Shown here piece after piece: positions 2,300 to 59,188 of a stretch of DNA of 59,795 bases. Below the pieces are notes generated by a model. That model saw only the letters and a program-made list of their open reading frames with translations, did not search any database and was not told where the DNA came from. This stretch comes from an uncultured Candidatus Saccharibacteria bacterium (GTDB taxonomy: Bacteria > Patescibacteriota > Minisyncoccia > Minisyncoccales > GWA2-38-27): assembly GCA_964391095.1 (NCBI GenBank), contig CAYMJA010000001.1, forward strand, positions 1 to 59,795. The letters are read 5' to 3'. The position numbers and the translations under genes were made by a program. The stretch's first letter is position 1. The number at the start of each line of letters is the position of its first letter.

Positions 2300-2323
2300 G
2301 TTAATTTTCTTAAATCTTTTTGA

Positions 2324-2441
2324 ACAGTAGCCCGACCTTTTCTCTCGCTCTGATTCTCTATCAATCAGAGAACTGGTTTACCCTGCACCTTTTTCCAGAA
2401 AAGGTGAAGAGTTTATTCAGCGAGTCCAAACAGCTACTATC
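2324..2441 (-). ncRNA. Unclassified structured RNA or long structured leader between rpsP and the KH gene
   Basis: A near-consensus promoter lies immediately upstream. A terminal helix (AGTAGC/GCTACT, CTCGCT/AGCGAG) encloses two 8-bp hairpins (2348-2370 and 2386-2406). Confidence 0.4.
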
Positions 2442-2444
2442 CAT

Positions 2445-2472
2445 ATTATATTCTAATTAAAAAATATGTCAA
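2445..2472 (-). promoter_or_regulatory. Sigma70-like promoter (TTGACA-16-TATAAT)
   Basis: Minus strand reads GGGGTTGACAtattttttaattagaaTATAAT, starting 5 nt after the rpsP stop. Confidence 0.6.
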
Positions 2473-2477
2473 CCCCT

Positions 2478-2942
2478 TTAAGATTCTTCTTTGGTCTTTT
2501 GGGTTTTATCTTCTTTAGGTTCTTGCTTTTCTTTTTTCTTCTCTTCGGAGGATTGTTCTTTCTTTTCTTCTGATTTTTTAATCTCTTTTTCGGGTTCTGA
2601 TTTTAGCCCTTCACCTTTAGCTAAAGGTGAAGGGCTTACCTTTTCTTTGGTCTCTACTTTCTCTTTTTTCTTCTTTTTCTTTTTGTGGACCGGAATTTTT
2701 GCTCCTTCTAAAATCTTTTCTCGAACCAGCAGATTATAAACGCTATCTGATGGTTTAGCTCCTTTCGAGAGCCAATATTCAATCCTCTCTTTTTTCAAAA
2801 CTTTTTTCTTTTTTAAAGGATTCCAAAATCCAACCTCTTCCACAAAACGACCGCCTTTCGGGGGTTTCCTTTTATCTGTGACCACAATTTTAAATAAAGG
2901 TTGATGTTTTTTACCTACTCGAAAAAAACGAATTTTTAACAT
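2478..2942 (-). CDS. rpsP: 30S ribosomal protein S16 with about 70-aa Lys/Glu-rich C-terminal extension
   Basis: MLKIRFFRVGKKHQPLFKIVV is an S16 N-terminus. The tail is K/E-rich and contains a 32-nt perfect palindrome. Confidence 0.95.
   Translation of the reverse strand: MLKIRFFRVGKKHQPLFKIVVTDKRKPPKGGRFVEEVGFWNPLKKKKVLKKERIEYWLSKGAKPSDSVYNLLVREKILEGAKIPVHKKKKKKKEKVETKEKVSPSPLAKGEGLKSEPEKEIKKSEEKKEQSSEEKKKEKQEPKEDKTQKTKEES
2605..2636. repeat. CCCTTCACC-family palindrome (perfect 16+16 nt) inside the rpsP tail
   Basis: AGCCCTTCACCTTTAG|CTAAAGGTGAAGGGCT, encoding SPSPLAKGEGL. Confidence 0.9.
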
Positions 2943-4620: not shown

Positions 4621-7600
4621 ATGAAGTTTACCCACCTCCATGCCCATAGCCATTATAGCCTACTTGACGGTTTACCTAAAATCGATGAACTTTTAGATTA
4701 TACTAAAGAATTAGGAATGGACTCCTTAGCTTTAACCGACCACGGGGTTTTATATGGAGCAGTAGAGTTCTTTCAAAAAGCCAAGAAAAAAGGAATTAAG
4801 CCAATAATAGGGGTGGAAGCATATGTTGCTTTTGAGAAGATGACCCAGAAAAGACCAAATATAGATAATAAAAGATATCATTTGGTTCTGCTGGTAAAAA
4901 ACGAAGAGGGCTATAAAAATTTAGTCAAACTTATAACTAAAGCCCATTTAGAGGGTTTTTATTATAAGCCGAGAATAGACGAAAAACTTTTGGCAAAACA
5001 TTCTAAGGGTCTAATTGCTTTAACCGCTTGTTTGGCAGGAAAAATTCCTCGTTTAATTTTGGCGAAAAAATTTGAAGAAGCCGAAAATACGGCTCTAAAA
5101 TACCAAAATATTTTTGGTAAAGATAACTTTTATTTAGAACTTCAACATCATCCTCATATAGCGAAGCAAAAAATTGTTAACAAAGCACTAATCTCTATCT
5201 CAAAAAAATACGGCATTCCTTTGGTAGCAACAAATGATGTTCACTATCTAAAGCCAGAAGATGCCGAAGCTCAGGATACTTTGATGTTAATTAACACTGG
5301 AGCTGACCCCAATGACCCAGAAAGGGTAACTATGAAAGCAGATGATTTTTCTCTAAAAACTCCAAAAGAAATGATAGAAGATTTCAAAGAAGTTCCTGAA
5401 GCTATTGAGAATACACAAAAAATTGCCAATGCCTGCGATTTTCAATTTGAACTGGGGAAAGTCAAGCTACCCTATTTTGAAGTGCCTAATGGAAAAACCC
5501 CGAATGAATACTTAGAAGAACTTTGCTGCCAGGGATTAAAAAATCGATACGGCTCAAATCCCAGCAAAGAGATTATAGACAGATTTAATTACGAGCTTTC
5601 GGTTGTTAAACAAACTGGCTTTGCTTCTTATTTTTTAATAGTTCAAGATTTTGTTAATTGGGCTAAAGAAAACAGAATTATTGTCGGTCCAGGTCGAGGA
5701 TCAGTTGGAGGCTCTTTGGTAGCTTACTTATTAAACATTACAAACATCGACCCCTTAAAGCATAATCTCTTATTTCAGCGTTTTCTGAATCCCGAACGAA
5801 TCTCAATGCCTGACATTGACCTCGATTTTACCGACCGAAGAAGAGATGAGGTTATAGATTACATCGCCCAAAAGTATGGACGGGATAAAGTGGCTCAAAT
5901 TATTACTTTCGGAACAATGGCGGCCCGAGCAGTAATAAGAGATGTTGGCAGGGCTTCAAATTATACTTATAGTTACTGCGATAAAATCGCTAAAATGATC
6001 CCTTCTGGATTTAATTTAAATAGGGCTTTAAAAAACATTAAAGAGTTTAGGGATATTTATGAAACCGATGAACAGGCGAAAAAATTGATTGACTTAGCAA
6101 AAAAATTGGAAGGCGTAGCCCGCCACGCTTCAACTCACGCCTGCGGTATAGTAATATCTGAACAGCCCCTCTCAAACTTAATTCCCCTACAACATCCTAC
6201 TCAAAATGATAAAAATATCATTACCCAATACGAGATGCATTCAATTGAAAACCTGGGACTTTTAAAAATAGACCTTTTGGGCCTAAAAAATTTAACTGTT
6301 ATTGAAGACACTCTATCTAGAATTTATGTAGTTCGGGAAGGGAAAAAGGTTAACATTGAAAATATCCCTTTTGATGATAAAAGGGTTTATAAACTCTTAC
6401 AAAGGGGCGATACCACCGGTGTATTCCAACTGGAATCATCGGGTTTCCAAAGATATTTAAAGCAACTAAAACCCACTGAATTTGAAGATATTGTGGCTAT
6501 GGTTGCTCTTTATAGGCCGGGTCCAATACAGTTTATTCCAGATTACATTGACAGAAAACATAAAAGAAGAAAAATAGAATATTTACATCCAAAACTAAAA
6601 CCAATATTAGAAAAAACCCAAGGGATTTGTATTTTCCAGGAACAGTTGATGCAAATTGCTCAGCAATTAGCCGGTTTTACTCTTTCAGAGGCAGATGTTT
6701 TAAGAAAAGCAGTTGGAAAAAAAATAAAGAGTCTACTTTTAGAGCAAAAAGATAAAATGATGCAGGGGATGTTAAAAAACGGAATAAATAAAGAAGTCGC
6801 TCAAAAAATCTGGGAGTGGGTTTTGCCATTCGCTAAGTATGGCTTTAACCGCGCTCATTCAACTGCCTACGCTATTATTGCCTATCAAACTGCCTATCTA
6901 AAAGTTCACTATCCAGTAGAATTTATGGCTGCTCTTCTAACTTCTGAGAGGGCCGATATTGAAAGAATTGCTGTTTTAATTGAAGAATGCAAAAAAATGG
7001 GAATTGAAGTTCTTCCTCCAAATATCAACGAGAGTTTAAAAAACTTCACCGTTGTTCTTTCCCCCACCCCAATTTTGTCAAAGGTCCTTGATGGCAAGGC
7101 GATCGGGACCATTTTTCCTCGAAAAATGACGGGAAGCAAAATAAGATTCGGACTCTTGGCTATAAAAAATGTCGGCCAGAATATCATTGATGTTATTATT
7201 GAAGAAAGAAAAAATAACGGTTCTTTTCAAAGCATTGGAGATTTCCTTCAGAGGGTTAACTCAAAAGACCTAAACAAAAAATCTCTGGAAAGCTTAATTA
7301 GGACTGGGGCTTTCGATGGCTTAGCAGAAAGAAATCAACTTTTAGACAACTTAGAAAGGCTGCTTGAATGGGCACGAGAAACTCAAAAAGCAAAAATGAA
7401 TGGACAAAAAGGACTTTTTGATGATAATCCAAAATCTAACAAGAATGAAATCTCTCTCCTTCCTGCTCCTCCGGCTACAAATTTTGAAAAGTTAAATTGG
7501 GAAAAAGAACTTTTAGGTCTTTATGTAACCTCCCATCCTTTGGAGGAGTTCAAGGAAATTTTAGAAAAGAAAACTTTATCTCTAGTTAATATTAACAATG

Positions 7601-13826: not shown

Positions 13827-13837
13827 ACAAAAAGTCA

Positions 13838-13875
13838 GTCAAAAAGGCGGGAGAACCCGCCTTTTTGACTATAAT
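13838..13875 (+). terminator. Rho-independent terminator
   Basis: 14-bp stem GTCAAAAAGGCGGG/CCCGCCTTTTTGAC. Confidence 0.8.
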
Positions 13876-15053: not shown

Positions 15054-15095
15054 ACAACATAAAAACAGTCCTTGAGGGGACTGTTTTTATGTTGT
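15054..15095 (+). terminator. Strong hairpin terminator (18-bp perfect stem)
   Basis: ACAACATAAAAACAGTCC-ttgagg-GGACTGTTTTTATGTTGT. Confidence 0.8.
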
Positions 15096-18079: not shown

Positions 18080-19054
18080 GTGAAAAAAAATAAAAGAGAA
18101 AAACTTATTGTTATCTTGGGACCAACAGCTAGCGGGAAAACCGCGCTTTCTATTAAACTCGCTAAAAATTTTAATGGCGAGATTGTTTCTGCGGATTCAA
18201 GACAAGTCTACAAAGGAATGGATATTGGTACTGGCAAAATAACCAAAAAAGAAATGAAAGGTATCCCCCATTATCTTTTAGGTGTCGCTTCCCCAAAAAG
18301 GAAATTTTCTGTTGCTCAATATCAAAAATTAGCTCAAAGGGCTATAGAGAAAATTCTCAAAAAGCAAAAAATTCCTTTCTTGGTTGGAGGATCCCCTTTT
18401 TATATTTACTCGGTTGTTGAAGGTTGGATTTTTCCGAAAATGAAGCCAAATTGGCAGTTAAGAAAAAAATTAGAAAAACAATCTAAAGAGAAACTTTTTT
18501 CAACTTTGAAAAAACTTGACCCTCAAAGGGCTAAAACCATTGAAAAAGAAAATAAAAGAAGATTAATCCGAGCAATTGAAATTGCCAAAACCCTTGGAAA
18601 GATACCGAAACTTAAAAAAAATCCTCAATTTGATGTTTTAATGCTTGGTATTAAAAAAGACCCTGAAGGGCTTAAAAAATTAATAAGAAAAAGGTTGTTA
18701 AAGAGGTTAAAAACAAGCCCGCCCGCAACGCTTCGCAAGCGAGCTTGCTCGCGTAGCGATGCGGACGGGGGAATGATTAAAGAAGTAGAAACACTTCACA
18801 AAAATAATATTAGTTGGAAAAGATTAGAAGAATTTGGTTTAGAATACCGATACATTGCTTTATACCTTCAGGGAAAATTAGGGAAAGAAGAAATGCTGGA
18901 AAAATTACAAAAAGAAATTGAACATTTCGCTAAAAGACAAATGACCTGGTTTAGGAAAGACAAACGAATTAAGTGGGTAGAAAATTACCAAGAGACAGAA
19001 AAATTAATAAAAGGATTTCTAAAAAAAGGAGGAAGAAAAATTCTTCCTCTTTAA
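18080..19054 (+). CDS. miaA: tRNA dimethylallyltransferase MiaA (GTG start) with in-frame GC-rich insert
   Basis: ILGPTASGKT P-loop, SADSRQVYKGMDIGTGK, FAKRQMTWFR. Confidence 0.93.
   Translation: MKKNKREKLIVILGPTASGKTALSIKLAKNFNGEIVSADSRQVYKGMDIGTGKITKKEMKGIPHYLLGVASPKRKFSVAQYQKLAQRAIEKILKKQKIPFLVGGSPFYIYSVVEGWIFPKMKPNWQLRKKLEKQSKEKLFSTLKKLDPQRAKTIEKENKRRLIRAIEIAKTLGKIPKLKKNPQFDVLMLGIKKDPEGLKKLIRKRLLKRLKTSPPATLRKRACSRSDADGGMIKEVETLHKNNISWKRLEEFGLEYRYIALYLQGKLGKEEMLEKLQKEIEHFAKRQMTWFRKDKRIKWVENYQETEKLIKGFLKKGGRKILPL
18717..18771. repeat. GC-rich palindromic element (core CGCCCGCAACGCTT) in-frame in miaA
   Basis: GCCCGCCCGCAACGCTTCGCAAGCGAGCTTGCTCGCGTAGCGATGCGGACGGGGG. The same core occurs in gyrB and rpsD. 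Confidence 0.9.
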
Positions 19055-19362: not shown

Positions 19363-19493
19363 CTGTCTCGCCTCCTTCAGATAGAGCTGGAACTTCAGCT
19401 GGAATTTTCACGTTAGTATTCTCCTTTCTCCTCAGGTTTTTAATGTACAAGCGTTAGAGATTATATTATATAGCATTGTTTAGCTTTTAGTCA

Positions 19494-19527
19494 ACCCTTC
19501 ACCTTTAATCTGTTAAAGGTGAAGGGT
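19494..19527. repeat. CCCTTCACC-family inverted repeat at the gatB 3' end
   Basis: ACCCTTCACCTTTA-atctgt-TAAAGGTGAAGGGT. The right arm encodes the last residues and the stop of gatB. Confidence 0.9.
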
Positions 19528-21003
19528 CAAGAATTCTTGGATTAAGCGGTTAACTATTTCGGGATTAGCTCTTCCTTTAGTAGCAGCCATTACCTGTCCT
19601 ACTAAAAATTGAAGGGCATTTTTTTTACCTTTTTTATAATCTCCAACTACTTTTTGATTTTTTGAGAGAACATTTTTTATTACTTTTTTAATCTCTTCTT
19701 CATTAGTTAATTGGGTCCAACCCTTTTCTTTAATAATATGGGAAGGGTCAGCGCCTGTTCCGAACATTTCTTCTAAAACTTGTTTTGCTATTTTGCTTGT
19801 TATTTTTCCTTCATAAATTAAAGTAACGAACTCAGCGAAATTCTCCGGAGTGATTAAAAAATCTTCGCCAGAAACCAGGGCCCTCTTAAGTAATCTTTGA
19901 AGGTCGGTGATAATATAATTTGAAGCAAGTTTAATCAATTGATTCTTTTCCTGTTCAGCAATTTTTGTCTTAAATTCAATTACCTTTAGCCAGTTTCTCA
20001 ATTCTGAAACTACTTTTTCAAAATATTCGCCGAGGTCTTTATTTGCGATAAAGATATTAGAACTTTTCTCTTCTAAATTATACTCTCTAACAAACCTTTC
20101 TCTCTTTTGTTGGGGCAACTCAGGGATTTCTGCCCTTATTTCTTGAATAAAATTCTTATCTAAATGAAGAGTTGGTAAATCGGGTTCGGGAAAGTATCTA
20201 TAATCATAAGCTTCTTCTTTTTCTCGCTGGCTAACCGTTGCTTTTTTTATGTCATTCCATCCTCGGGTTTCCTGAACAATCTTTTTGCCGGCATTTAAAA
20301 TTTCTTTTTGTCTTTTGATTTCATAGTTAACTGCCCCTTCTACCGCCCTAAAAGAGTTCAAGTTCTTAATTTCAACTTTGGTTCCTAACTTATCTAAAGT
20401 TTTATTCTCCGGCAAAAGAGAAATATTTACCTCCACACGCAACTGTCCTTTCTCCATATCAGCATCGGAGACACCGAGATATCTTAAAATTAGTTTTAAT
20501 TCTTCAGCAAATTTTCTTGCCTCTTTAGCTGTTCTCAAATCTGGCTCAGTAACTAACTCCATTAAAGGAATACCCGCTCTATTGAAATCAACTAAAGAAT
20601 AATTTTCCCTTTCGGGGTGAATTAATCTTCCAGTGTCTTCTTCAAGATGAACCCTTGTTATGCGAATTTTTCTATTCTCAGTCTGTAAAAAACCATTTTT
20701 ACAAAGAGGTTTATCATATTGAGAAATCTGGTATCCTTTTGGTAGGTCAGGGTAAAAATAATTTTTCCTATCAAATTTTGAATCTTCAGGAATTTGGCAA
20801 TTTAAAGCTAACCCTGTTTTGATTACTTTTCTTACCGCGTCTTTATTAATAACAGGAAGTGTTCCTGGATGTCCAAAACATATTGGGCATATATTAGTAT
20901 TCGGACGATGCTCGTTAGGATCGTTCTTACAAGAACAAAACATTTTACTCCTGGTTTTTAACTCAGTATGTATTTCAAGACCAATAATGGATTGGTAGTT
21001 CAT
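19513..21003 (-). CDS. gatB: Asp/Glu-tRNA amidotransferase subunit B
   Basis: MNYQSIIGLEIHTEL...CPICFGHPGTLP, GatB/YqeY C-terminus. Confidence 0.95.
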   Translation of the reverse strand: MNYQSIIGLEIHTELKTRSKMFCSCKNDPNEHRPNTNICPICFGHPGTLPVINKDAVRKVIKTGLALNCQIPEDSKFDRKNYFYPDLPKGYQISQYDKPLCKNGFLQTENRKIRITRVHLEEDTGRLIHPERENYSLVDFNRAGIPLMELVTEPDLRTAKEARKFAEELKLILRYLGVSDADMEKGQLRVEVNISLLPENKTLDKLGTKVEIKNLNSFRAVEGAVNYEIKRQKEILNAGKKIVQETRGWNDIKKATVSQREKEEAYDYRYFPEPDLPTLHLDKNFIQEIRAEIPELPQQKRERFVREYNLEEKSSNIFIANKDLGEYFEKVVSELRNWLKVIEFKTKIAEQEKNQLIKLASNYIITDLQRLLKRALVSGEDFLITPENFAEFVTLIYEGKITSKIAKQVLEEMFGTGADPSHIIKEKGWTQLTNEEEIKKVIKNVLSKNQKVVGDYKKGKKNALQFLVGQVMAATKGRANPEIVNRLIQEFLTLHL

Positions 21004-24494: not shown

Positions 24495-24523
24495 ATAATA
24501 GCCAAAAAGAATCTAAATGTCAA
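24495..24523 (-). promoter_or_regulatory. Sigma70-like promoter for secE-nusG-rplK (GGGTTGACA-17-TATTAT)
   Basis: The -35 box immediately follows the arm of the 24523-24608 inverted repeat. Confidence 0.55.
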
Positions 24524-24608
24524 CCCTTCACCTTTCGGTAGTCATTTAGCATGAAATCAAACTCTATCTATTCCTTCATACAGTAAACATTCCCGAAAGG
24601 TGAAGGGT
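24523..24608. repeat. CCCTTCACC-family element: 16-bp perfect inverted repeats flanking 54 nt
   Basis: ACCCTTCACCTTTCGG ... CCGAAAGGTGAAGGGT, with TCAA on both outer flanks. Confidence 0.9.
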
Positions 24609-24615
24609 CAAGATA

Positions 24616-30390: not shown

Positions 30391-30488
30391 CTCCTTTTCT
30401 ATTCTTTCAATGTTTTCATTTAATTTTTTAATGTGCTTAATTTATAATGCTTAATTTATAATAAATTATGTAAGAAGTCAAATCTTTG

Positions 30489-30562
30489 CGGGGACGATGG
30501 GACTCGAACCCACAACCACTGGATCGACAATCCAGTGCTCTAACCAATTGAGCTACGCCCCC
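30489..30562 (-). tRNA. tRNA-Asp (anticodon GTC)
   Basis: GGGGGCGTAGCTCAATTGGTTAGAGC, anticodon loop TTGTCGA, T-loop TTCGAGT. Confidence 0.9.
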
Positions 30563-30573
30563 TTATCTGTATA

Positions 30574-30647
30574 TGCCGGTGGTGGGACTCGAACCCAACG
30601 ACCTAATGCTTATGAAGCATCCACTCTAACCACTGAGCTACACCGGC
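30574..30647 (-). tRNA. tRNA with CAT anticodon (elongator Met or Ile2), canonical
   Basis: GCCGGTGTAGCTCAGTGGTTAGAG, loop TTCATAA, T-loop TTCGAGT. Position 1:72 is paired and the anticodon stem is not initiator-like. Confidence 0.85.
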
Positions 30648-30779: not shown

Positions 30780-30823
30780 GGCTATGACAAAAATCCCGCG
30801 ATCGCGGGATTTTTGTCATAGCC
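30780..30823. repeat. Perfect 44-nt palindrome (22-bp stem, GATC centre)
   Basis: GGCTATGACAAAAATCCCGCGA|TCGCGGGATTTTTGTCATAGCC. Confidence 0.9.
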
Positions 30824-31378: not shown

Positions 31379-32818
31379 TTAAGTTGCAATTACTTGACCA
31401 ATTTTTAAAATTTTATTCTCCTCAAACGGTTTTCCAATAATCTGTAAACCAACGGGCAACTTTCCTACAAAGCCGACTGGGATAGAAACGGCTGGCAAGC
31501 CAACTAAGTTTGGGGAAACAGTAAAAATATCAGAAAGATACATTAAAAGAGGGTCTTTAATTTTTTCACCGATTTTAAATGCCGGGGTTGGTGAGGTCGG
31601 GGTTAAAATAATGTCAACCTTTTGAAATGCCTTATCAAAATCTTCTTTAATTAATGTCCTAACCCTCTGGGCTCTTAAATAATAAGCATCATAATAACCA
31701 GCAGAAAGAGCATAAGTGCCAAGCATAATTCTTCTTTTAACCTCATCTCCAAAACCCTCTGCTCTACTTTGTAAATAAACGTCTAATAAAGTTTTGACAT
31801 TCGACCCCTCGCCCTGGCTAAGAGACAAAGAGCTTGATAGTCCGTATTTTATCCCGTCGTATCTGGCCAAATTGGCTGATGCTTCAGAGTTAGTAATAAG
31901 ATAATAAGTAGCCAAAGCGTATTTTGTATGGGCTAAACTAACTTTTTCAATTTTCGCCCCAAGATTTTCAAATTTTTTAATAGCTGTTTTAATTACTTTT
32001 TCGACTTCAGGGTCCATACCTTTAATAAAATATTCTTTTGGAACACCAATCTTTAATTTCGGAATTTGGGGTTTGGGATTTGGAGTTTTAGATTCGACGC
32101 TAGTTGAATCTTTTGGGTCTTTCCCGGAAATTGCTTCAAATACAATTTTAGCATCTTCGGCTGTTTTTGTTATTGGTCCTATCTGATCCAAAGAAGAAGC
32201 AAAAGCAACTAAGCCATAGCGAGAAACTGCTCCATAAGTTGGCTTTAATCCTACCACGCCGCAAAAAGAAGCCGGTTGCCTAATTGAACCACCAGTATCA
32301 GAACCCAGGGCATAGCAACATAAGTCAGCGGCTACGGCAGCCGCTGACCCTCCAGAAGTTCCGCCAGGCACCCGGGTTAAATCATAAGGATTTTTTGTTG
32401 GAAAAAATGCTGAATTTTCAGTCGAAGACCCCATAGCAAATTCATCTAAATTTGTTTTTCCTAAAATTACTGCTCCGAGTTTTTTAAGTTTTTCTATACA
32501 GGTAGCATCATAAGGCGCAATATAATCTTCAAGGATTTTGGAAGCACAGCTTAGCTTAATTCCCTCAATTAAAATATTATCTTTAACAGCTAAAGGAATT
32601 CCAGCCAGAACCGAAATATTTCTACCAACAGAGATTAAATCATCAATTTTTTTTGCCTGGGAAAGAGCTAATTTTTCTGTAACTGTTAAATAGGCGGAAA
32701 TTTCTTTATCGACTTTTTTAATTCTATCCAAAAATGCTTTAGTCAACTCTAAAGCAGAGAACTTTTTTTTCAATAGTCCCTGATGAGCTTGGCTTATGGT
32801 TAATTTACGAAGTTCCAC
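31379..32818 (-). CDS. gatA: Glutamyl-tRNA(Gln) amidotransferase subunit A (GTG start)
   Basis: Amidase signature [25 protein letters not shown]. Confidence 0.95.
32061..32089. repeat. In-frame TTTGGGN heptamer array in gatA
   Basis: GGAATTTGGGGTTTGGGATTTGGAGTTTT, encoding [11 protein letters not shown]. Confidence 0.8.
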
Positions 32819-37096: not shown

Positions 37097-38140
37097 TTAC
37101 TTTTTCGCCATTATACTCTTTTTATAGACCTCAAGGTTTTCAAGCACTACCCCTGTTCCCTTAGCTACGCAAAATAAAGGTTCATCAGCTAAAAAACAAG
37201 GAACACCAGTAGATCGAGCAATAAGTTCATCAATCCTTCTAAGCATTGCTCCCCCTCCAGAAAGAACCATTCCTTTATCTATGATATCAGCTGAAAGTTC
37301 AGGGGGCGTATCTTTCAAAACCGTCTTAATTATTTGAACAATTTCATTAAGTCGGTCGAAAATTGCCTCTTGAATTTCATTAGATGAAATTTTAAGATTT
37401 CGGGGCAATCCTGAAATTAAATCTCGACCTCGAATTTCTAACCTCTTCTCAGAAATCTGTTCACCCTTAGAAGAGCCGGAAAATGCAACCTTTTCTGGTA
37501 AAGCTGTGCCGATTTTTATTTTTATTTCTTCGGCAGTTTGCTCGCCGATAGCCAAATTATGCTTTTGTTTGATGTAATTTGAAATTGCCTGGTCTATTTT
37601 ATCTCCACCCGCTCTCAAAGAAGAAGAGGTTACTATTCCTCCAAGAGCAATTACAGCCACCTCTGAAGTTCCTCCCCCAATGTCAACAATCATATGGCCC
37701 GAACAAGAATCAATAGGAATACCAGCACCAATCGCAGCTAAAATAGGTTCTTTGGCAACGTATACTGCTTGAGCACCCGCTGCCATCCCGGCTTCAATCA
37801 CCGCTCTTTTTTCAGTTGAGGTAATACCAGCCGGAACTCCGATTAATAATTCCGGTTTCAAAAAACTGAAAGACCCTGTTGTTTTTTTAATAAAATATTT
37901 CATCATTGCCTCGGTGACACGATAATCAGCAATCACCCCATCTTTTAATGGTCGATAAACCCTTATAGTATCTGGAGTCCGACCAGTCATTTTTTTGGCT
38001 TCTTGTCCTACTGCTAAAATTCTATTTTCAGAGACCCCAACTGCTACTACCGACGGTTCGTTCAAAACCACTCCTTTATGGGGGATAAAAACTATAGAAT
38101 TACAAGTCCCAAGATCAATGCCGATTTTTTTAGAAAACAT
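37097..38140 (-). CDS. mreB: Rod-shape protein MreB (paralog 2)
   Basis: IGIDLGTCNSIVF, DIGGGTSEVAVIALGG. Has about a 12-aa insert (VAFSGSSKGEQIS) relative to paralog 1. Confidence 0.9.
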   Translation of the reverse strand: MFSKKIGIDLGTCNSIVFIPHKGVVLNEPSVVAVGVSENRILAVGQEAKKMTGRTPDTIRVYRPLKDGVIADYRVTEAMMKYFIKKTTGSFSFLKPELLIGVPAGITSTEKRAVIEAGMAAGAQAVYVAKEPILAAIGAGIPIDSCSGHMIVDIGGGTSEVAVIALGGIVTSSSLRAGGDKIDQAISNYIKQKHNLAIGEQTAEEIKIKIGTALPEKVAFSGSSKGEQISEKRLEIRGRDLISGLPRNLKISSNEIQEAIFDRLNEIVQIIKTVLKDTPPELSADIIDKGMVLSGGGAMLRRIDELIARSTGVPCFLADEPLFCVAKGTGVVLENLEVYKKSIMAKK

Positions 38141-42723: not shown

Positions 42724-43267
42724 GGCGAGCGCGCTTTAAGCCAAATTTCTTTCTTTCTCTGACTCTTGGGTCCCTCGTTAAATAACCTGCTTTACGTAAT
42801 CTCTTGCGAAAATCAGGGTTAAACTTTACTAATGTCCGAGCTATCCCGTGTCTTACAGCTTCAGCTTGGGCATAAATTCCTCCTCCTCTTACTTTGACCA
42901 AAACCTTAAACTTATCAAGGGATTTCATCTTCCTGAGAGAATCGGTAGCAACTTGCTGAAGTTCAGGAGTAAAAAAATAATTCTGATAAGGTTTTGCATT
43001 AACTAAAATCTCCTTTTTCCCTTTAGTAAAAATTCTCACCCGAGCCAGCGCTGTTTTTCGTTTGCCAATACTCTCAAGATATCGCGCCGGTTTGATAGCT
43101 TTCTTCTTAACTTCTTTTTTCTCAACCTTCTTCTTGGTAGTTGTTTTCTTTTCTACTTTCTTTATTTTTTCACCCCCCCGCACCTTTTCTGCAGAAATGG
43201 TGCTGGGTTTAGCCTTCTTGGGTTTCTTCCTGGCAGATTTTTTGGTTTTAGTTATTACTTTCTTCAT
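42698..43267 (-). CDS. rpsI: 30S ribosomal protein S9 with about 60-aa Lys-rich N-terminal extension
   Basis: GKRKTALARVRI...GGGIYAQAEAVRHGIARTL...RERKKFGLKRARRAPQWQKR. Confidence 0.95.
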   Translation of the reverse strand: MKKVITKTKKSARKKPKKAKPSTISAEKVRGGEKIKKVEKKTTTKKKVEKKEVKKKAIKPARYLESIGKRKTALARVRIFTKGKKEILVNAKPYQNYFFTPELQQVATDSLRKMKSLDKFKVLVKVRGGGIYAQAEAVRHGIARTLVKFNPDFRKRLRKAGYLTRDPRVRERKKFGLKRARRAPQWQKR

Positions 43268-43626: not shown

Positions 43627-43986
43627 TCATTTAACAAGTTCAATTATTGCCATTTTCGCCCCGTCGCTTTTTCTTGGCCCCAGTTTGATAATTCTAGTAT
43701 ATCCTCCTTTTCTCTCCCTATATCTTGGAGCAATTTCGTTAACTAATCTCTTAACTAATTTTTTTGAAAAATATTTTGCTAAAATCCGTCTCGAGGCTAA
43801 ATCCCCTTTTTTTGCCCGGGTTATAAGTTTATCTGCGAATACTGAAATTTCCTTAGCTTTTGCCTCATTAGTCCTCATTTTCTCCCTTAAAAAAAGGGCT
43901 CTGGTCAAAGATTTTAACAGGGCTTTTCGCTGGTCTTTTTTTCTTGAAAATTTTCTTCCTCGTTTTTGCTTACGCATATTGCTCAC
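43627..43986 (-). CDS. rplQ: 50S ribosomal protein L17
   Basis: RKALLKSLTRALFLREKMRTNEAKAKE...GGYTRIIKLGPRKSDGA. Confidence 0.93.
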   Translation of the reverse strand: MSNMRKQKRGRKFSRKKDQRKALLKSLTRALFLREKMRTNEAKAKEISVFADKLITRAKKGDLASRRILAKYFSKKLVKRLVNEIAPRYRERKGGYTRIIKLGPRKSDGAKMAIIELVK

Positions 43987-44837
43987 TTTTTTGATTTCTT
44001 CTTTGGCTTTTTTTGTTTCTTTTTGACCACCGTAGCCTTTTTGGCTGCCGTAACTTTACCCTTCACTTTTCTTTTAGAAAGGGTGAAGGGTTTAACAGAA
44101 GCGGATTTCTTTTTGGAAACCTTCTCTTCAAAAACCTTCTTTTCTTCCGGGACCTTAAAGCTTTCTCTAAACAAGGAAAAGTGTTTTACTAAAATTTCCG
44201 ATGCCCGATAGAACGCTTCTTTGGGAGTAACTGTTCCGTCGGTTTTAATTTCTAAATATAATCTGTCAAAATCTGTCCTTTCTCCTACCCGCATATTTTC
44301 TACTTTATAACTTACTCTTCTGATTGGGGTAAAAATAGCATCAATGGGTATAACGCCAATTTCTAATTTCTCCTGTTTCTTTCTCCGTTCAATCGGTTCA
44401 TATCCAATCCCTTTTTTGATTTGAATTTCCATCTCTAATTCTGCTTTTTTATCAGTTAAAGTAGCAATATGACAGGATTTATTTATTAATTCAACCTGAC
44501 TGGGATAATCGAAATCAGAACCCTTAACTTCTTTTTCTCCTTTAACTTTCAATAATGCTTTTTGGGGCTCATCAGCATATATTTTAAATCTCATTTGTTT
44601 CAAATTCATCATAATCACAATTACATCTTCTAAAACCCCAGGTATTGTTGAAAATTCGTGCTGTACTCCTTTTATTTTCATTTGGGTTACAGCTGCTCCC
44701 GACAAAGAAGAAAGCAAAACTCTTCGAAGACAGTTCCCGATAGTTACTCCATAACCAGGGTATAAGCCCTCAATTTCAAAACGAGCCCAATTATCTTTTT
44801 TGCTAATAATTTTAGATTGCCGTGGTAAAAGTATCAT
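43983..44837 (-). CDS. rpoA: RNA polymerase alpha subunit, N-terminal domain only, plus Lys-rich tail
   Basis: GYGVTIGNCLRRVLLSSL, PIRRVSYKVENMRVGERTDFDRL. No alpha-CTD helix-hairpin-helix sequence is present. Confidence 0.92.
   Translation of the reverse strand: MILLPRQSKIISKKDNWARFEIEGLYPGYGVTIGNCLRRVLLSSLSGAAVTQMKIKGVQHEFSTIPGVLEDVIVIMMNLKQMRFKIYADEPQKALLKVKGEKEVKGSDFDYPSQVELINKSCHIATLTDKKAELEMEIQIKKGIGYEPIERRKKQEKLEIGVIPIDAIFTPIRRVSYKVENMRVGERTDFDRLYLEIKTDGTVTPKEAFYRASEILVKHFSLFRESFKVPEEKKVFEEKVSKKKSASVKPFTLSKRKVKGKVTAAKKATVVKKKQKKPKKKSKK
44058..44091. repeat. CCCTTCAC-family inverted repeat in the rpoA tail
   Basis: ACCCTTCAC...GTGAAGGGT with TTTA on both flanks, encoding KPFTLSKRKVKGK. 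Confidence 0.8.
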
Positions 44838-44953: not shown

Positions 44954-45619
44954 TTAACGTGAGTAAAATTCGAAAATAGCAGAAATTTCTGCTGGCGGAA
45001 TTATTTCTTCTGAAGACGGTTCGCTAATAATTTCTCCCTCCAATTTTTCAATATTAACTTTAATCCAAGAAGGAGGTTTATACTTTTTTAAAACTGTAGG
45101 AAGGTTTTGAAAAATAATTTTTTTACGGGAACGAGGATTCAAACTAATCTTATCGCCCTTTTTTGTCTGAAAAGAGGGAATATTAACCATCTTTCCATTA
45201 ACTAAAAAATGATTATGGTTAATAATTTGATGGGCTTGACGACGAGAAGGAGTAAACCCCATTCTAAAAACCACATTATCTAAACGGCTTTCTAATTTTT
45301 TCACCAATAAAGCGCTTGTATCTTCCCCGCCCGCAACGCTTCGCGAAGCGATGCGGGTGGGTACCTTTCCTCGTTTTTCAAGAACTTCTTTTATATATTT
45401 TCTAAATTGTTTTTCTTCCAAATTATACCAAGCTTTTAATTTCTGTTTTTCTCTTAATTCCCTTCCATATTCAGAAATCGTCCTTCTTCTTCTCTTGCTT
45501 TTTATTCCTGGCGAATACGGTCTTGTTACCATTGAACACTTTGGCGATAAGCATCTCTCGCCTTTAAGAAAAAGTTTCTGCCCTAACTTTCTACAAATTT
45601 TACATTTATTACTTTTCAT
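44954..45619 (-). CDS. rpsD: 30S ribosomal protein S4 with in-frame GC-rich insert
   Basis: Zn-ribbon N-terminus (CKICRKLG...CLSPKC), LESRLDNVVFRMGF, S4 domain. Confidence 0.95.
   Translation of the reverse strand: MKSNKCKICRKLGQKLFLKGERCLSPKCSMVTRPYSPGIKSKRRRRTISEYGRELREKQKLKAWYNLEEKQFRKYIKEVLEKRGKVPTRIASRSVAGGEDTSALLVKKLESRLDNVVFRMGFTPSRRQAHQIINHNHFLVNGKMVNIPSFQTKKGDKISLNPRSRKKIIFQNLPTVLKKYKPPSWIKVNIEKLEGEIISEPSSEEIIPPAEISAIFEFYSR
45325..45361. repeat. GC-rich palindromic element (core CGCCCGCAACGCTT) in-frame in rpsD
   Basis: CCCCGCCCGCAACGCTTCGC|GAAGCGATGCGGGTGGG, encoding PTRIASRSVAGG. Confidence 0.92.
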
Positions 45620-59059: not shown

Positions 59060-59188
59060 GGGAATATGACTTTCGGGAGTACCGCAGGCAAGTTAGCTTG
59101 GTTATGCCGAAGGCGGATAACTTGCCGAGGAACTAAGCTCGTTTTGCCGCTGGAAGCAAAACGAGCGGCTCCCGAAAGTCATATTCCC
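59060..59188 (-). ncRNA. 129-nt GC-rich structured element with 20-bp perfect terminal inverted repeats (MITE-like or structured RNA)
   Basis: Terminal repeats GGGAATATGACTTTCGGGAG (59060-79) / CTCCCGAAAGTCATATTCCC (59169-88). Inner 9-bp stem GGCAAGTTA/TAACTTGCC and 11-bp stem GCTCGTTTTGC/GCAAAACGAGC. Confidence 0.6.

Follow-up and report, generated by a model that had tools for sequence, protein, structure and literature searches.

The stretch of DNA considered here (59,795 nt, contig CAYMJA010000001.1 of assembly GCA_964391095.1, from an uncultured Candidatus Saccharibacteria bacterium; hereafter the window, meaning its full length) has a G+C content of ~35% and is dense with housekeeping genes, and the closest relatives of its proteins carry the labels Patescibacteria, Nealsonbacteria or Pacebacteria. 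Its minus strand carries rpsP, an open reading frame (ORF) of 154 amino acids (2478-2942) with the Pfam domain Ribosomal_S16 over residues 8-65. Embedded in the Lys/Glu-rich C-terminal tail of this ribosomal protein S16 is the subject of our analysis, a perfect 32-nt palindrome translated as SPSPLAKGEGL, which is present exactly as an original prediction on this DNA had described it (Table 1). That prediction also placed related copies in or beside genes that it named as those of S16, GatB, GyrB and RpoA, names with which our annotation agrees.

When searched with at most one mismatch, the 12-nt arm of the palindrome (CCCTTCACCTTT) matches the window 10 times against an expectation of 0.63, and in shuffled controls the maximum was four matches, with 0/100 shuffles reaching 10. 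All 10 matches pair up as five inverted pairs, corresponding to the first five entries of Table 1, so that the five copies in 60 kb originally proposed are borne out. The master form of the element is the perfect 28-nt palindrome CCCTTCACCTTT-AGCT-AAAGGTGAAGGG, that is, two 12-bp terminal inverted repeats and four central bases; variants span 26-84 nt, none has an ORF inside, and the window holds five to six copies depending on whether the diverged palindrome in S9 is counted. The latter belongs to a sister subfamily (CCCCGCACC...GGTGCTGGG) that is also found in related metagenomic loci, namely L069:1286-1320 with TAAA/TAAA flanks and L143 with a TTGA duplication. The copy at gatB provides the final codons and the stop of that gene (...EFLTLHL*, stop 19513-19515) and, on the minus strand, directly adjoins the -35 box TTGACT of the mraZ promoter. 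The longest copy runs from the gyrB stop codon to the -35 box TTGACA of the secE-nusG promoter; its terminal repeats lengthen to 15-16 paired bases as TTTCGG/CCGAAA, and the 60 nt between its 12-nt arms gave no match in the ~1 Mb searched. Two suggested diverged half-copies did not survive scrutiny: that in gatA (31806-31826) has no arm match even at three mismatches, and that in mreB2 (37457-37468) matches the arm only at three mismatches, a level at which the window yields 98 matches versus 83 expected by chance.

Table 1. Palindromic copies and other features of the window (positions in nt; an empty cell means that nothing was recorded).
Feature	Position	Length and form	Flanks	Setting
S16 (rpsP) copy	2605-2636; 28-nt core 2607-2634	32 nt, perfect, AGCCCTTCACCTTTAG followed by CTAAAGGTGAAGGGCT; core = 12-nt arm, AGCT, 12-nt arm	TAAG/CTAA	rpsP, C-terminal tail
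Spacer copy	2381-2411	31 nt, degenerate	TTTA duplication, 2377-2380 and 2412-2415	Conserved rpsP-khpA spacer
gatB copy	19495-19526 (19491-19530 with flanks)	32 nt	TCAA/TCAA	End of gatB
gyrB copy	24524-24607 (24520-24611 with flanks)	84 nt, 12-nt terminal repeats, unique interior	TCAA/TCAA	After gyrB
rpoA copy	44059-44090 (44055-44094 with flanks)	32 nt	TTTA duplication	In frame, Lys-rich RpoA tail, adds PFTLSKRKVKGK
S9 (rpsI) copy	43176-43207	32 nt, diverged palindrome CCCCGCACCTTTTCTGCAGAAATGGTGCTGGG		N-terminal extension of S9; found by repeat search
rpoA	43983-44837	284 aa
rpsP-khpA spacer	~2300-2470, minus strand
Second palindrome family, rpsD	45326-45361, minus strand	36 nt, CCCACCCGCATCGCTTCGCGAAGCGTTGCGGGCGGG		Exact in-frame insertion in S4
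Second palindrome family, sister copy	18718-18769	52 nt		Inside miaA ORF
Unrelated perfect palindrome	30780-30823	44 nt		Beside tRNA pair
Unrelated perfect palindrome	59060-59188	20-nt arms around 89 nt
Unrelated perfect palindrome	15054-15095	Hairpin, 15-18-nt arms		After a gene
Unrelated perfect palindrome	13837-13870	Hairpin, 15-18-nt arms		After a gene
tRNA-Thr(ggt), ARAGORN	381-456
tRNA-Phe, unusual anticodon aaa, ARAGORN	1054-1138	85 nt
Two tRNAs, Rfam	30488-30647

The family extends well beyond the window. When one genome per species (596 Gb) was scanned for exact matches to the pattern CCCTTCACCTT-N0-30-AAGGTGAAGGG, 66 stretches were returned, about two thirds of them in ~22 low-GC metagenome-assembled genomes (MAGs) of Patescibacteria, also known as the Candidate Phyla Radiation (CPR), several of which carry three to five loci each (up to five loci per fragmentary MAG). 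Nearly all the Patescibacteria copies share the 28-nt architecture, the commonest sequence being the exact perfect palindrome CCCTTCACCTTTAGCTAAAGGTGAAGGG, and the arms CCCTTCACCTTT/AAAGGTGAAGGG are perfect in three window copies and in ~50 copies from CPR MAGs. The view that a dispersed palindromic family occupies both coding and intergenic DNA is thus supported, with multiple copies per genome in the ~22 related MAGs. The scan hits outside the CPR (Meiothermus, Streptomyces, Bacteroides and others, mostly high-GC genomes) are single hairpins, except for Meiothermus, which has a longer repeat of its own; those in high-GC genomes have no direct-repeat flanks and four have flanks that extend the stem, and we set the non-CPR hits aside as unrelated hairpins. 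A search of 2.9 million viral contigs found no copy of the palindrome, only 16 single-end matches, none with a partner end.

Many of the copies bear the footprint of an insertion event. At the low-GC loci, most of which belong to the ~22 Patescibacteria MAGs, identical 4-nt direct repeats flank 24/55 copies, where permutations gave ~6 on average and 14 at most, and when TCAA/TTGA is excluded identical flanks still occur in 6/26 copies versus 0.57 expected, one of these six flanks being self-complementary (AGCT, the sole flank in the Runella MAG L021). The corresponding figure in high-GC genomes is 0/15. The flank types comprise TCAA/TTGA (the majority), TAAA/TTTA, CAAG, CTGG, TCAG and TGTAA. 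Two empty sites in relatives show directly what was gained. The rpsP-khpA spacer of the window reads, on the minus strand, GCTGAA-TAAA-CTCTTCACCTTTTCTGGAAAAAGGTGCAGGG-TAAA-CCAG, versus GCTGAA-TAAA-CCAA in L070, the closest available relative (S16 88% identical), an insertion of 35 nt made up of 31 nt plus the duplicated TAAA. In rpoA the window reads, again on the minus strand, GCTTCTGT-TAAA-CCCTTCACCCTTTCTAAAAGAAAAGTGAAGGG-TAAA-GTTACGGC, and L169 and L170 (RpoA 84% identical) read GCTCCTGT-TAAA-ATTAGGGC, an insertion of 36 nt (32 + 4), or exactly 12 codons. Two other coding copies have less regular edges: in S16 the net gain is 33 nt and the flanks do not form a clean duplication, and at the S9 copy L167 is without ~36-39 nt, the edges having decayed so that they are no longer clean. 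A generic search, open to palindromes of any sequence provided that 4-nt direct repeats flank them, proved too noisy in AT-rich DNA (8 matches versus 7 in a shifted-flank control), and only this family stood out. That the element is mobile and duplicates 4 bp of its target (a target-site duplication, TSD) is the part of our interpretation that we hold with high confidence.

What is conserved in this family is DNA rather than protein. The reading frame differs from host to host, giving SPSPLAKGEGL in S16, KPFTLSKRKVKGK in RpoA, PSTISAEKVRG in S9 and the C-terminal end of GatB given above, and two window copies are intergenic; since the frames differ between hosts, the conserved unit must be the DNA and not the peptide. 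Whether the tails of orthologues carry the same peptide without the palindrome could also be settled: among the 119 other closest S16 homologues none has either the peptide or the footprint (0/119), the closest S16 tails showing in alignment a gap of 11 codons where the palindrome sits, and in a set of 120 RpoA hits the peptide occurs only in the window's own protein and a near-identical variant. Insertion into genes is by no means rare, as ~12/56 copies (~20%) have an ORF of 120-1,505 aa running through them, and a single 854-aa ORF in the related MAG L046 holds two copies (5034-5061, 5865-5892), while L169:5732-5759 bears the variant CCCTTCACCCAAAGCTTTGGGTGAAGGG with TCAG/TCAG flanks. With AGCT at its centre the palindrome can be translated in just one frame out of three, hence the recurrence of a PSPLAKGEG-type peptide. 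A 28-nt unit together with its 4-bp duplication lengthens a gene by 32 nt and would shift the frame, so that surviving coding copies of this size would need a compensating change near an edge, and the frame would be retained with no further change only by the 32-nt form, which comes to 36 nt with its 4 bp. This need to restore the frame fits the observation that 28-nt coding copies are without clean flanks and that the duplication is still perfect around the 32-nt RpoA copy, an insertion of 36 nt overall.

The family shows a marked association with -35 promoter hexamers. With the copies oriented so that TTGA follows the palindrome, a -35 hexamer (17 times TTGACA) abuts the palindrome in 19/23 TTGA-flanked copies and is followed 16-19 nt downstream by a -10-like box, against a background of 8%. 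A promoter scan of the window found the mraZ promoter TTGACT-18-TATAAT (19494->19465) and the secE-nusG promoter TTGACA-17-TATTAT (24523->24495), both matching at 11/12 positions and both starting at the base beside the palindrome. We then compared 80 orthologous nusG loci from metagenomes (70-87% identical): 0/80 of these relatives carry a CCCTTCACC-type element upstream of nusG, and ~50 have a bare TTGACA at the gyrB/secE-nusG promoter with the same spacing to the -10 box, the spacer of L120 closely matching that of the window. The bare hexamer in ~50 orthologous loci implies that the -35 box predates the insertion and is regenerated by the TTGA duplication. At exactly the same point, other palindromes, 28-130 nt long, are present in L074, L075, L083 and L143, each bracketed as TTGA[...]TTGAC and with the ends CCCCGTAGAG, CCTCCGCAC, CCCCCCACC and CCCCGCACC. 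The CCCTTCACC family itself occupies this promoter in the window, L018, L026 and L050 (the latter three in the 28-nt form), with identical arms across four genomes whose GyrB proteins are 70-79% identical. Related elements have repeatedly inserted at the gyrB/secE-nusG site, and they make up a superfamily whose ends read CCCnnCACC...GGTGnnGGG. The gatB copy fits the same model, in that the sequence minus the element and one TTGA would encode ...QEFLTKS*, and the end of gatB would then overlap the -35 box of mraZ. We have moderate confidence that there is a real preference for the -35 box.

Two further observations concern the secE promoter in relatives. In L084, L091, L095, L100, L109, L112, L145 and L148 its -35 hexamer lies within the last gyrB codons (AAC CTT GAC ATT TAA = NLDI*), so that coding sequence and promoter overlap, and in L073 a TTTTCAA x4 tandem repeat stands immediately upstream of the -35 box, where other genomes hold palindromic insertions.

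Several explanations other than transposition were weighed against these data. Three of the copies fall in ribosomal or RNA polymerase proteins, within their Lys-rich tails or extensions, as would be expected if selection acted on a KGEG/PSPL peptide motif in low-complexity tails and the palindrome were a by-product, but those three are in different frames and encode unrelated peptides, the intergenic copies share the same DNA sequence, and the homologues of S16 and RpoA are without the peptide, apart from the window's own RpoA and its near-identical variant; we rejected this reading on the frame differences and the peptide-free orthologues, and give it practically no chance of being correct. 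A fixed cis-regulatory site upstream of -35 boxes, such as the operator of a dimeric regulator or a terminator or insulator, would account for the constant position directly 5' of TTGACA in the 19/23 promoter-type copies and for the identical arms at gyrB/secE in four genomes with diverged GyrB. It would not account for the ~50 orthologous promoters that do without the palindrome, for others that have unrelated palindromes at the same position, for the clean footprints with duplicated TAAA in a spacer and a coding tail, or for the ~20% of copies inside ORFs, and the stem is not followed by a T-run. The empty sites exclude a fixed operator or terminator as the primary explanation, making an immobile site very improbable, and individual promoter copies may have been co-opted secondarily. 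The hairpin-dependent transcript ends that had been suggested are likewise without sequence support, given the missing T-run, and an intrinsic terminator was rejected at both promoter-abutting window copies (gatB, gyrB), where no terminator-like site is found and the stem leads into TTGACA or TCAAGA.

Copying without any staggered cut was also considered. Were templates switched during replication at microhomologies of 4 nt, each new copy would bring its flanking tetramer along from the donor, in keeping with the dominance of TCAA and TAAA among the flanks, and the second palindrome family inserted in the window's rpsD without a duplication shows that not every palindromic insertion here needs a transposase. 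Yet there are at least six exact flank types (TCAA, TAAA, CAAG, CTGG, TCAG, TGTAA), different subfamilies all show the same 4-nt length, and a precise 4-nt duplication is the classical footprint of a transposase, so that we consider template switching rather improbable. We judge only a little less sceptically the idea of a repetitive extragenic palindromic (REP) or REPIN-type element, in which the hairpin is recognised as single-stranded DNA and spread by a genome-encoded REP-associated tyrosine transposase (RAYT, a Y1 HUH enzyme), and regard it too as unlikely. The 28-mer is indeed a strong hairpin as single-stranded DNA (-11.8 kcal/mol, z = -7), the close relative L167 has a RAYT-type Y1_Tnp (PF01797) gene, and with 2,441 hits this gene family is common across Patescibacteria. 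However, Y1_Tnp in 5/5 lineages (L167, L171, L173, L175, L181) is bordered by TTACA(G/C)GGG-loop-CCC(C/G)TGTAA and never by CCCTTCACC, and at the syntenic position the window has triosephosphate isomerase and no Y1_Tnp. The copies of our element have no conserved 5' GTAG, are frequent inside genes (~12/56 in long ORFs) and show variable exact 4-nt duplications (TAAA, TCAA, CAAG, CTGG, TCAG), whereas IS200/IS605 and RAYT (HUH) enzymes are not known to generate target duplications.

Taken together, our data suggest that the palindrome is probably a non-autonomous transposable element of Patescibacteria, similar to a miniature inverted-repeat transposable element (MITE), that inserts with a 4-bp duplication and is mobilised in trans. 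Insertion creates a 4-bp TSD, the tetramers being mostly TCAA/TTGA and TAAA/TTTA, and in most surviving copies the duplicated TTGA rebuilds a pre-existing sigma-70-type -35 box TTGACA, leaving the promoter intact with the palindrome directly 5' of it. The enzyme would be a trans-acting transposase making 4-bp staggered cuts, for which the insertion footprint points to a DDE transposase of the IS1380/piggyBac superfamily as the likeliest candidate, an identification in which our confidence is low. The termini of the piggyBac superfamily most often begin with CCCTT, which is their most conserved motif, and the superfamily generates a 4-bp TTAA duplication with rare TCAA/TAAA (PMC10813416); prokaryotic IS1380 transposases serve as its outgroup or sister group (PMC10813416). 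In these compact genomes such insertions would presumably be tolerated only at promoter-proximal sites and in disordered Lys/Glu tails. A bolder version of the transposition reading is that these are the smallest TSD-generating transposable units yet seen, 28 bp long with essentially two transposase-binding ends back to back, forming a Patescibacteria-wide superfamily that homes to the TTGA of -35 boxes and is mobilised by a prokaryotic piggyBac/IS1380-like enzyme; this we put forward tentatively, as a possibility that we would not yet call likely. In this bolder version, DNA just upstream of the -35 box could act as a safe harbour in these lineages, as loss of the alpha C-terminal domain of RNA polymerase would leave it uncontacted. 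The window's RpoA ends in its Lys-rich tail and is without this domain (PF03118), as are most close RpoA relatives (246-290 aa), and some (306-329 aa) keep it, which implies that the domain was lost in part of the lineage.

A number of points weigh against the transposition reading. About half of the copies have no identical flanks, for which decay may be responsible, as may changes that restored the frame in coding copies. The genome scan demanded exact arms, so the apparent conservation of the arms is partly an effect of ascertainment, and the TTGA bias at the -35 box could be a product of survivorship rather than the choice of the enzyme. About 660 kb of CPR loci yielded no long element bounded by such termini, neither an autonomous copy nor a transposase with these termini turned up in ~1 Mb of related DNA or in the viral contigs, and the 30 window ORFs scanned with Pfam contain no transposase domain. 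The 28-bp unit is, moreover, far below reviewed MITE sizes (~150-235 bp), and synapsis of two ends only 4 bp apart is hard to picture.

The window contains a number of other features of interest. The second palindrome family, in rpsD, adds PTRIASRSVAGG between KRGKV and EDT of S4; the segment is absent from three relatives and there is no target duplication. Insertion aside, the rpsP-khpA spacer is nearly identical to L070:3390-3535; it contains a TTGACA-17-TATAAT promoter of its own and long-range complementary ends (AGTAGC...GCTACT), and its sequence has the look of a structured leader or a small RNA. The DNA around the spacer copy, called a structured RNA in the original prediction, is a highly conserved spacer and has no counterpart in Rfam: neither a scan of the whole window at gathering cut-offs nor a permissive one of 2250-2500 assigned a family to the palindrome or to the spacer, and the only entries of the gathering scan were two tRNAs. 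Four other perfect palindromes (Table 1) are unrelated in sequence. In the five metagenomic loci with Y1_Tnp, the gene (736-1518 in L167) encodes ~253-263 aa with the HUH motif NHIHLL, and the border hairpins are in inverted orientation where both flanks are readable, indicating a REP-RAYT system that is separate from the palindrome family.

The genomes of CPR/Patescibacteria are among the smallest and most compact in bacteria and their mobile DNA is poorly characterised, and in this setting a 28-bp element with a classical 4-bp duplication probes the lower size limit of transposition. The copies point straight at -35 boxes and can serve as promoter markers in uncultured organisms, while the presence or absence of single copies provides fine-scale strain markers in metagenomes. 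Through insertions in disordered tails, essential proteins (S16, RpoA, S9) as well as large surface proteins gain peptide segments. If the link to piggyBac/IS1380 is true, a footprint of eukaryotic style would reach into a deep bacterial lineage.

A full-text literature search found no such elements described for the CPR and no transposable element aimed at the -35 hexamer, a result that speaks for the library searched and not for the literature as a whole, and several known systems can be compared. REP/REPIN elements with RAYT resemble the present family in being short (~20-40 nt) dispersed hairpin palindromes, and RAYT genes do occur in these lineages, but the local RAYT genes have a different hairpin, and here there are TSDs, many intragenic copies and no GTAG head. 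The Rickettsia palindromic elements (RPEs) are likewise palindromic repeats of a reduced genome, often inserted in frame in genes and translated (PMC10969869), but they are ~150 bp long and each has a conserved peptide, whereas here the units are 28-32 nt with different frames and peptides, most copies stand at promoters with a clear 4-bp duplication, and both the sequence and the host phylum are unrelated. With piggyBac/IS1380 the element shares CCCTT/AAGGG termini (CCCTTCACC...GGTGAAGGG) and a 4-bp duplication, TCAA and TAAA being among the rare variants of that superfamily (PMC10813416); the canonical target there is TTAA, whereas TCAA and TAAA dominate here, and the resemblance is one of footprint only. 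Bacterial MITEs such as Correia, RUP, Nezha, Chunjie and MITEAba12 are non-coding and dispersed, have terminal inverted repeats and TSDs, and are found near promoters and occasionally in frame within genes (PMC10969869). The palindrome shares their structure, with terminal inverted repeats, a TSD demonstrated by empty sites, and small non-coding dispersed copies, but is far smaller (typically 28-32 nt versus ~150-235 bp for the reviewed examples; PMC10969869), is a near-perfect palindrome with essentially nothing between its terminal repeats, and has no known parent insertion sequence. Correia elements bring their own promoter, whereas the palindrome lands in an existing -35 box and regenerates it, only duplicating the TTGA of a hexamer that the empty sites already possess. 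The element is thus an unusually small, -35-associated variant of the MITE-like kind.

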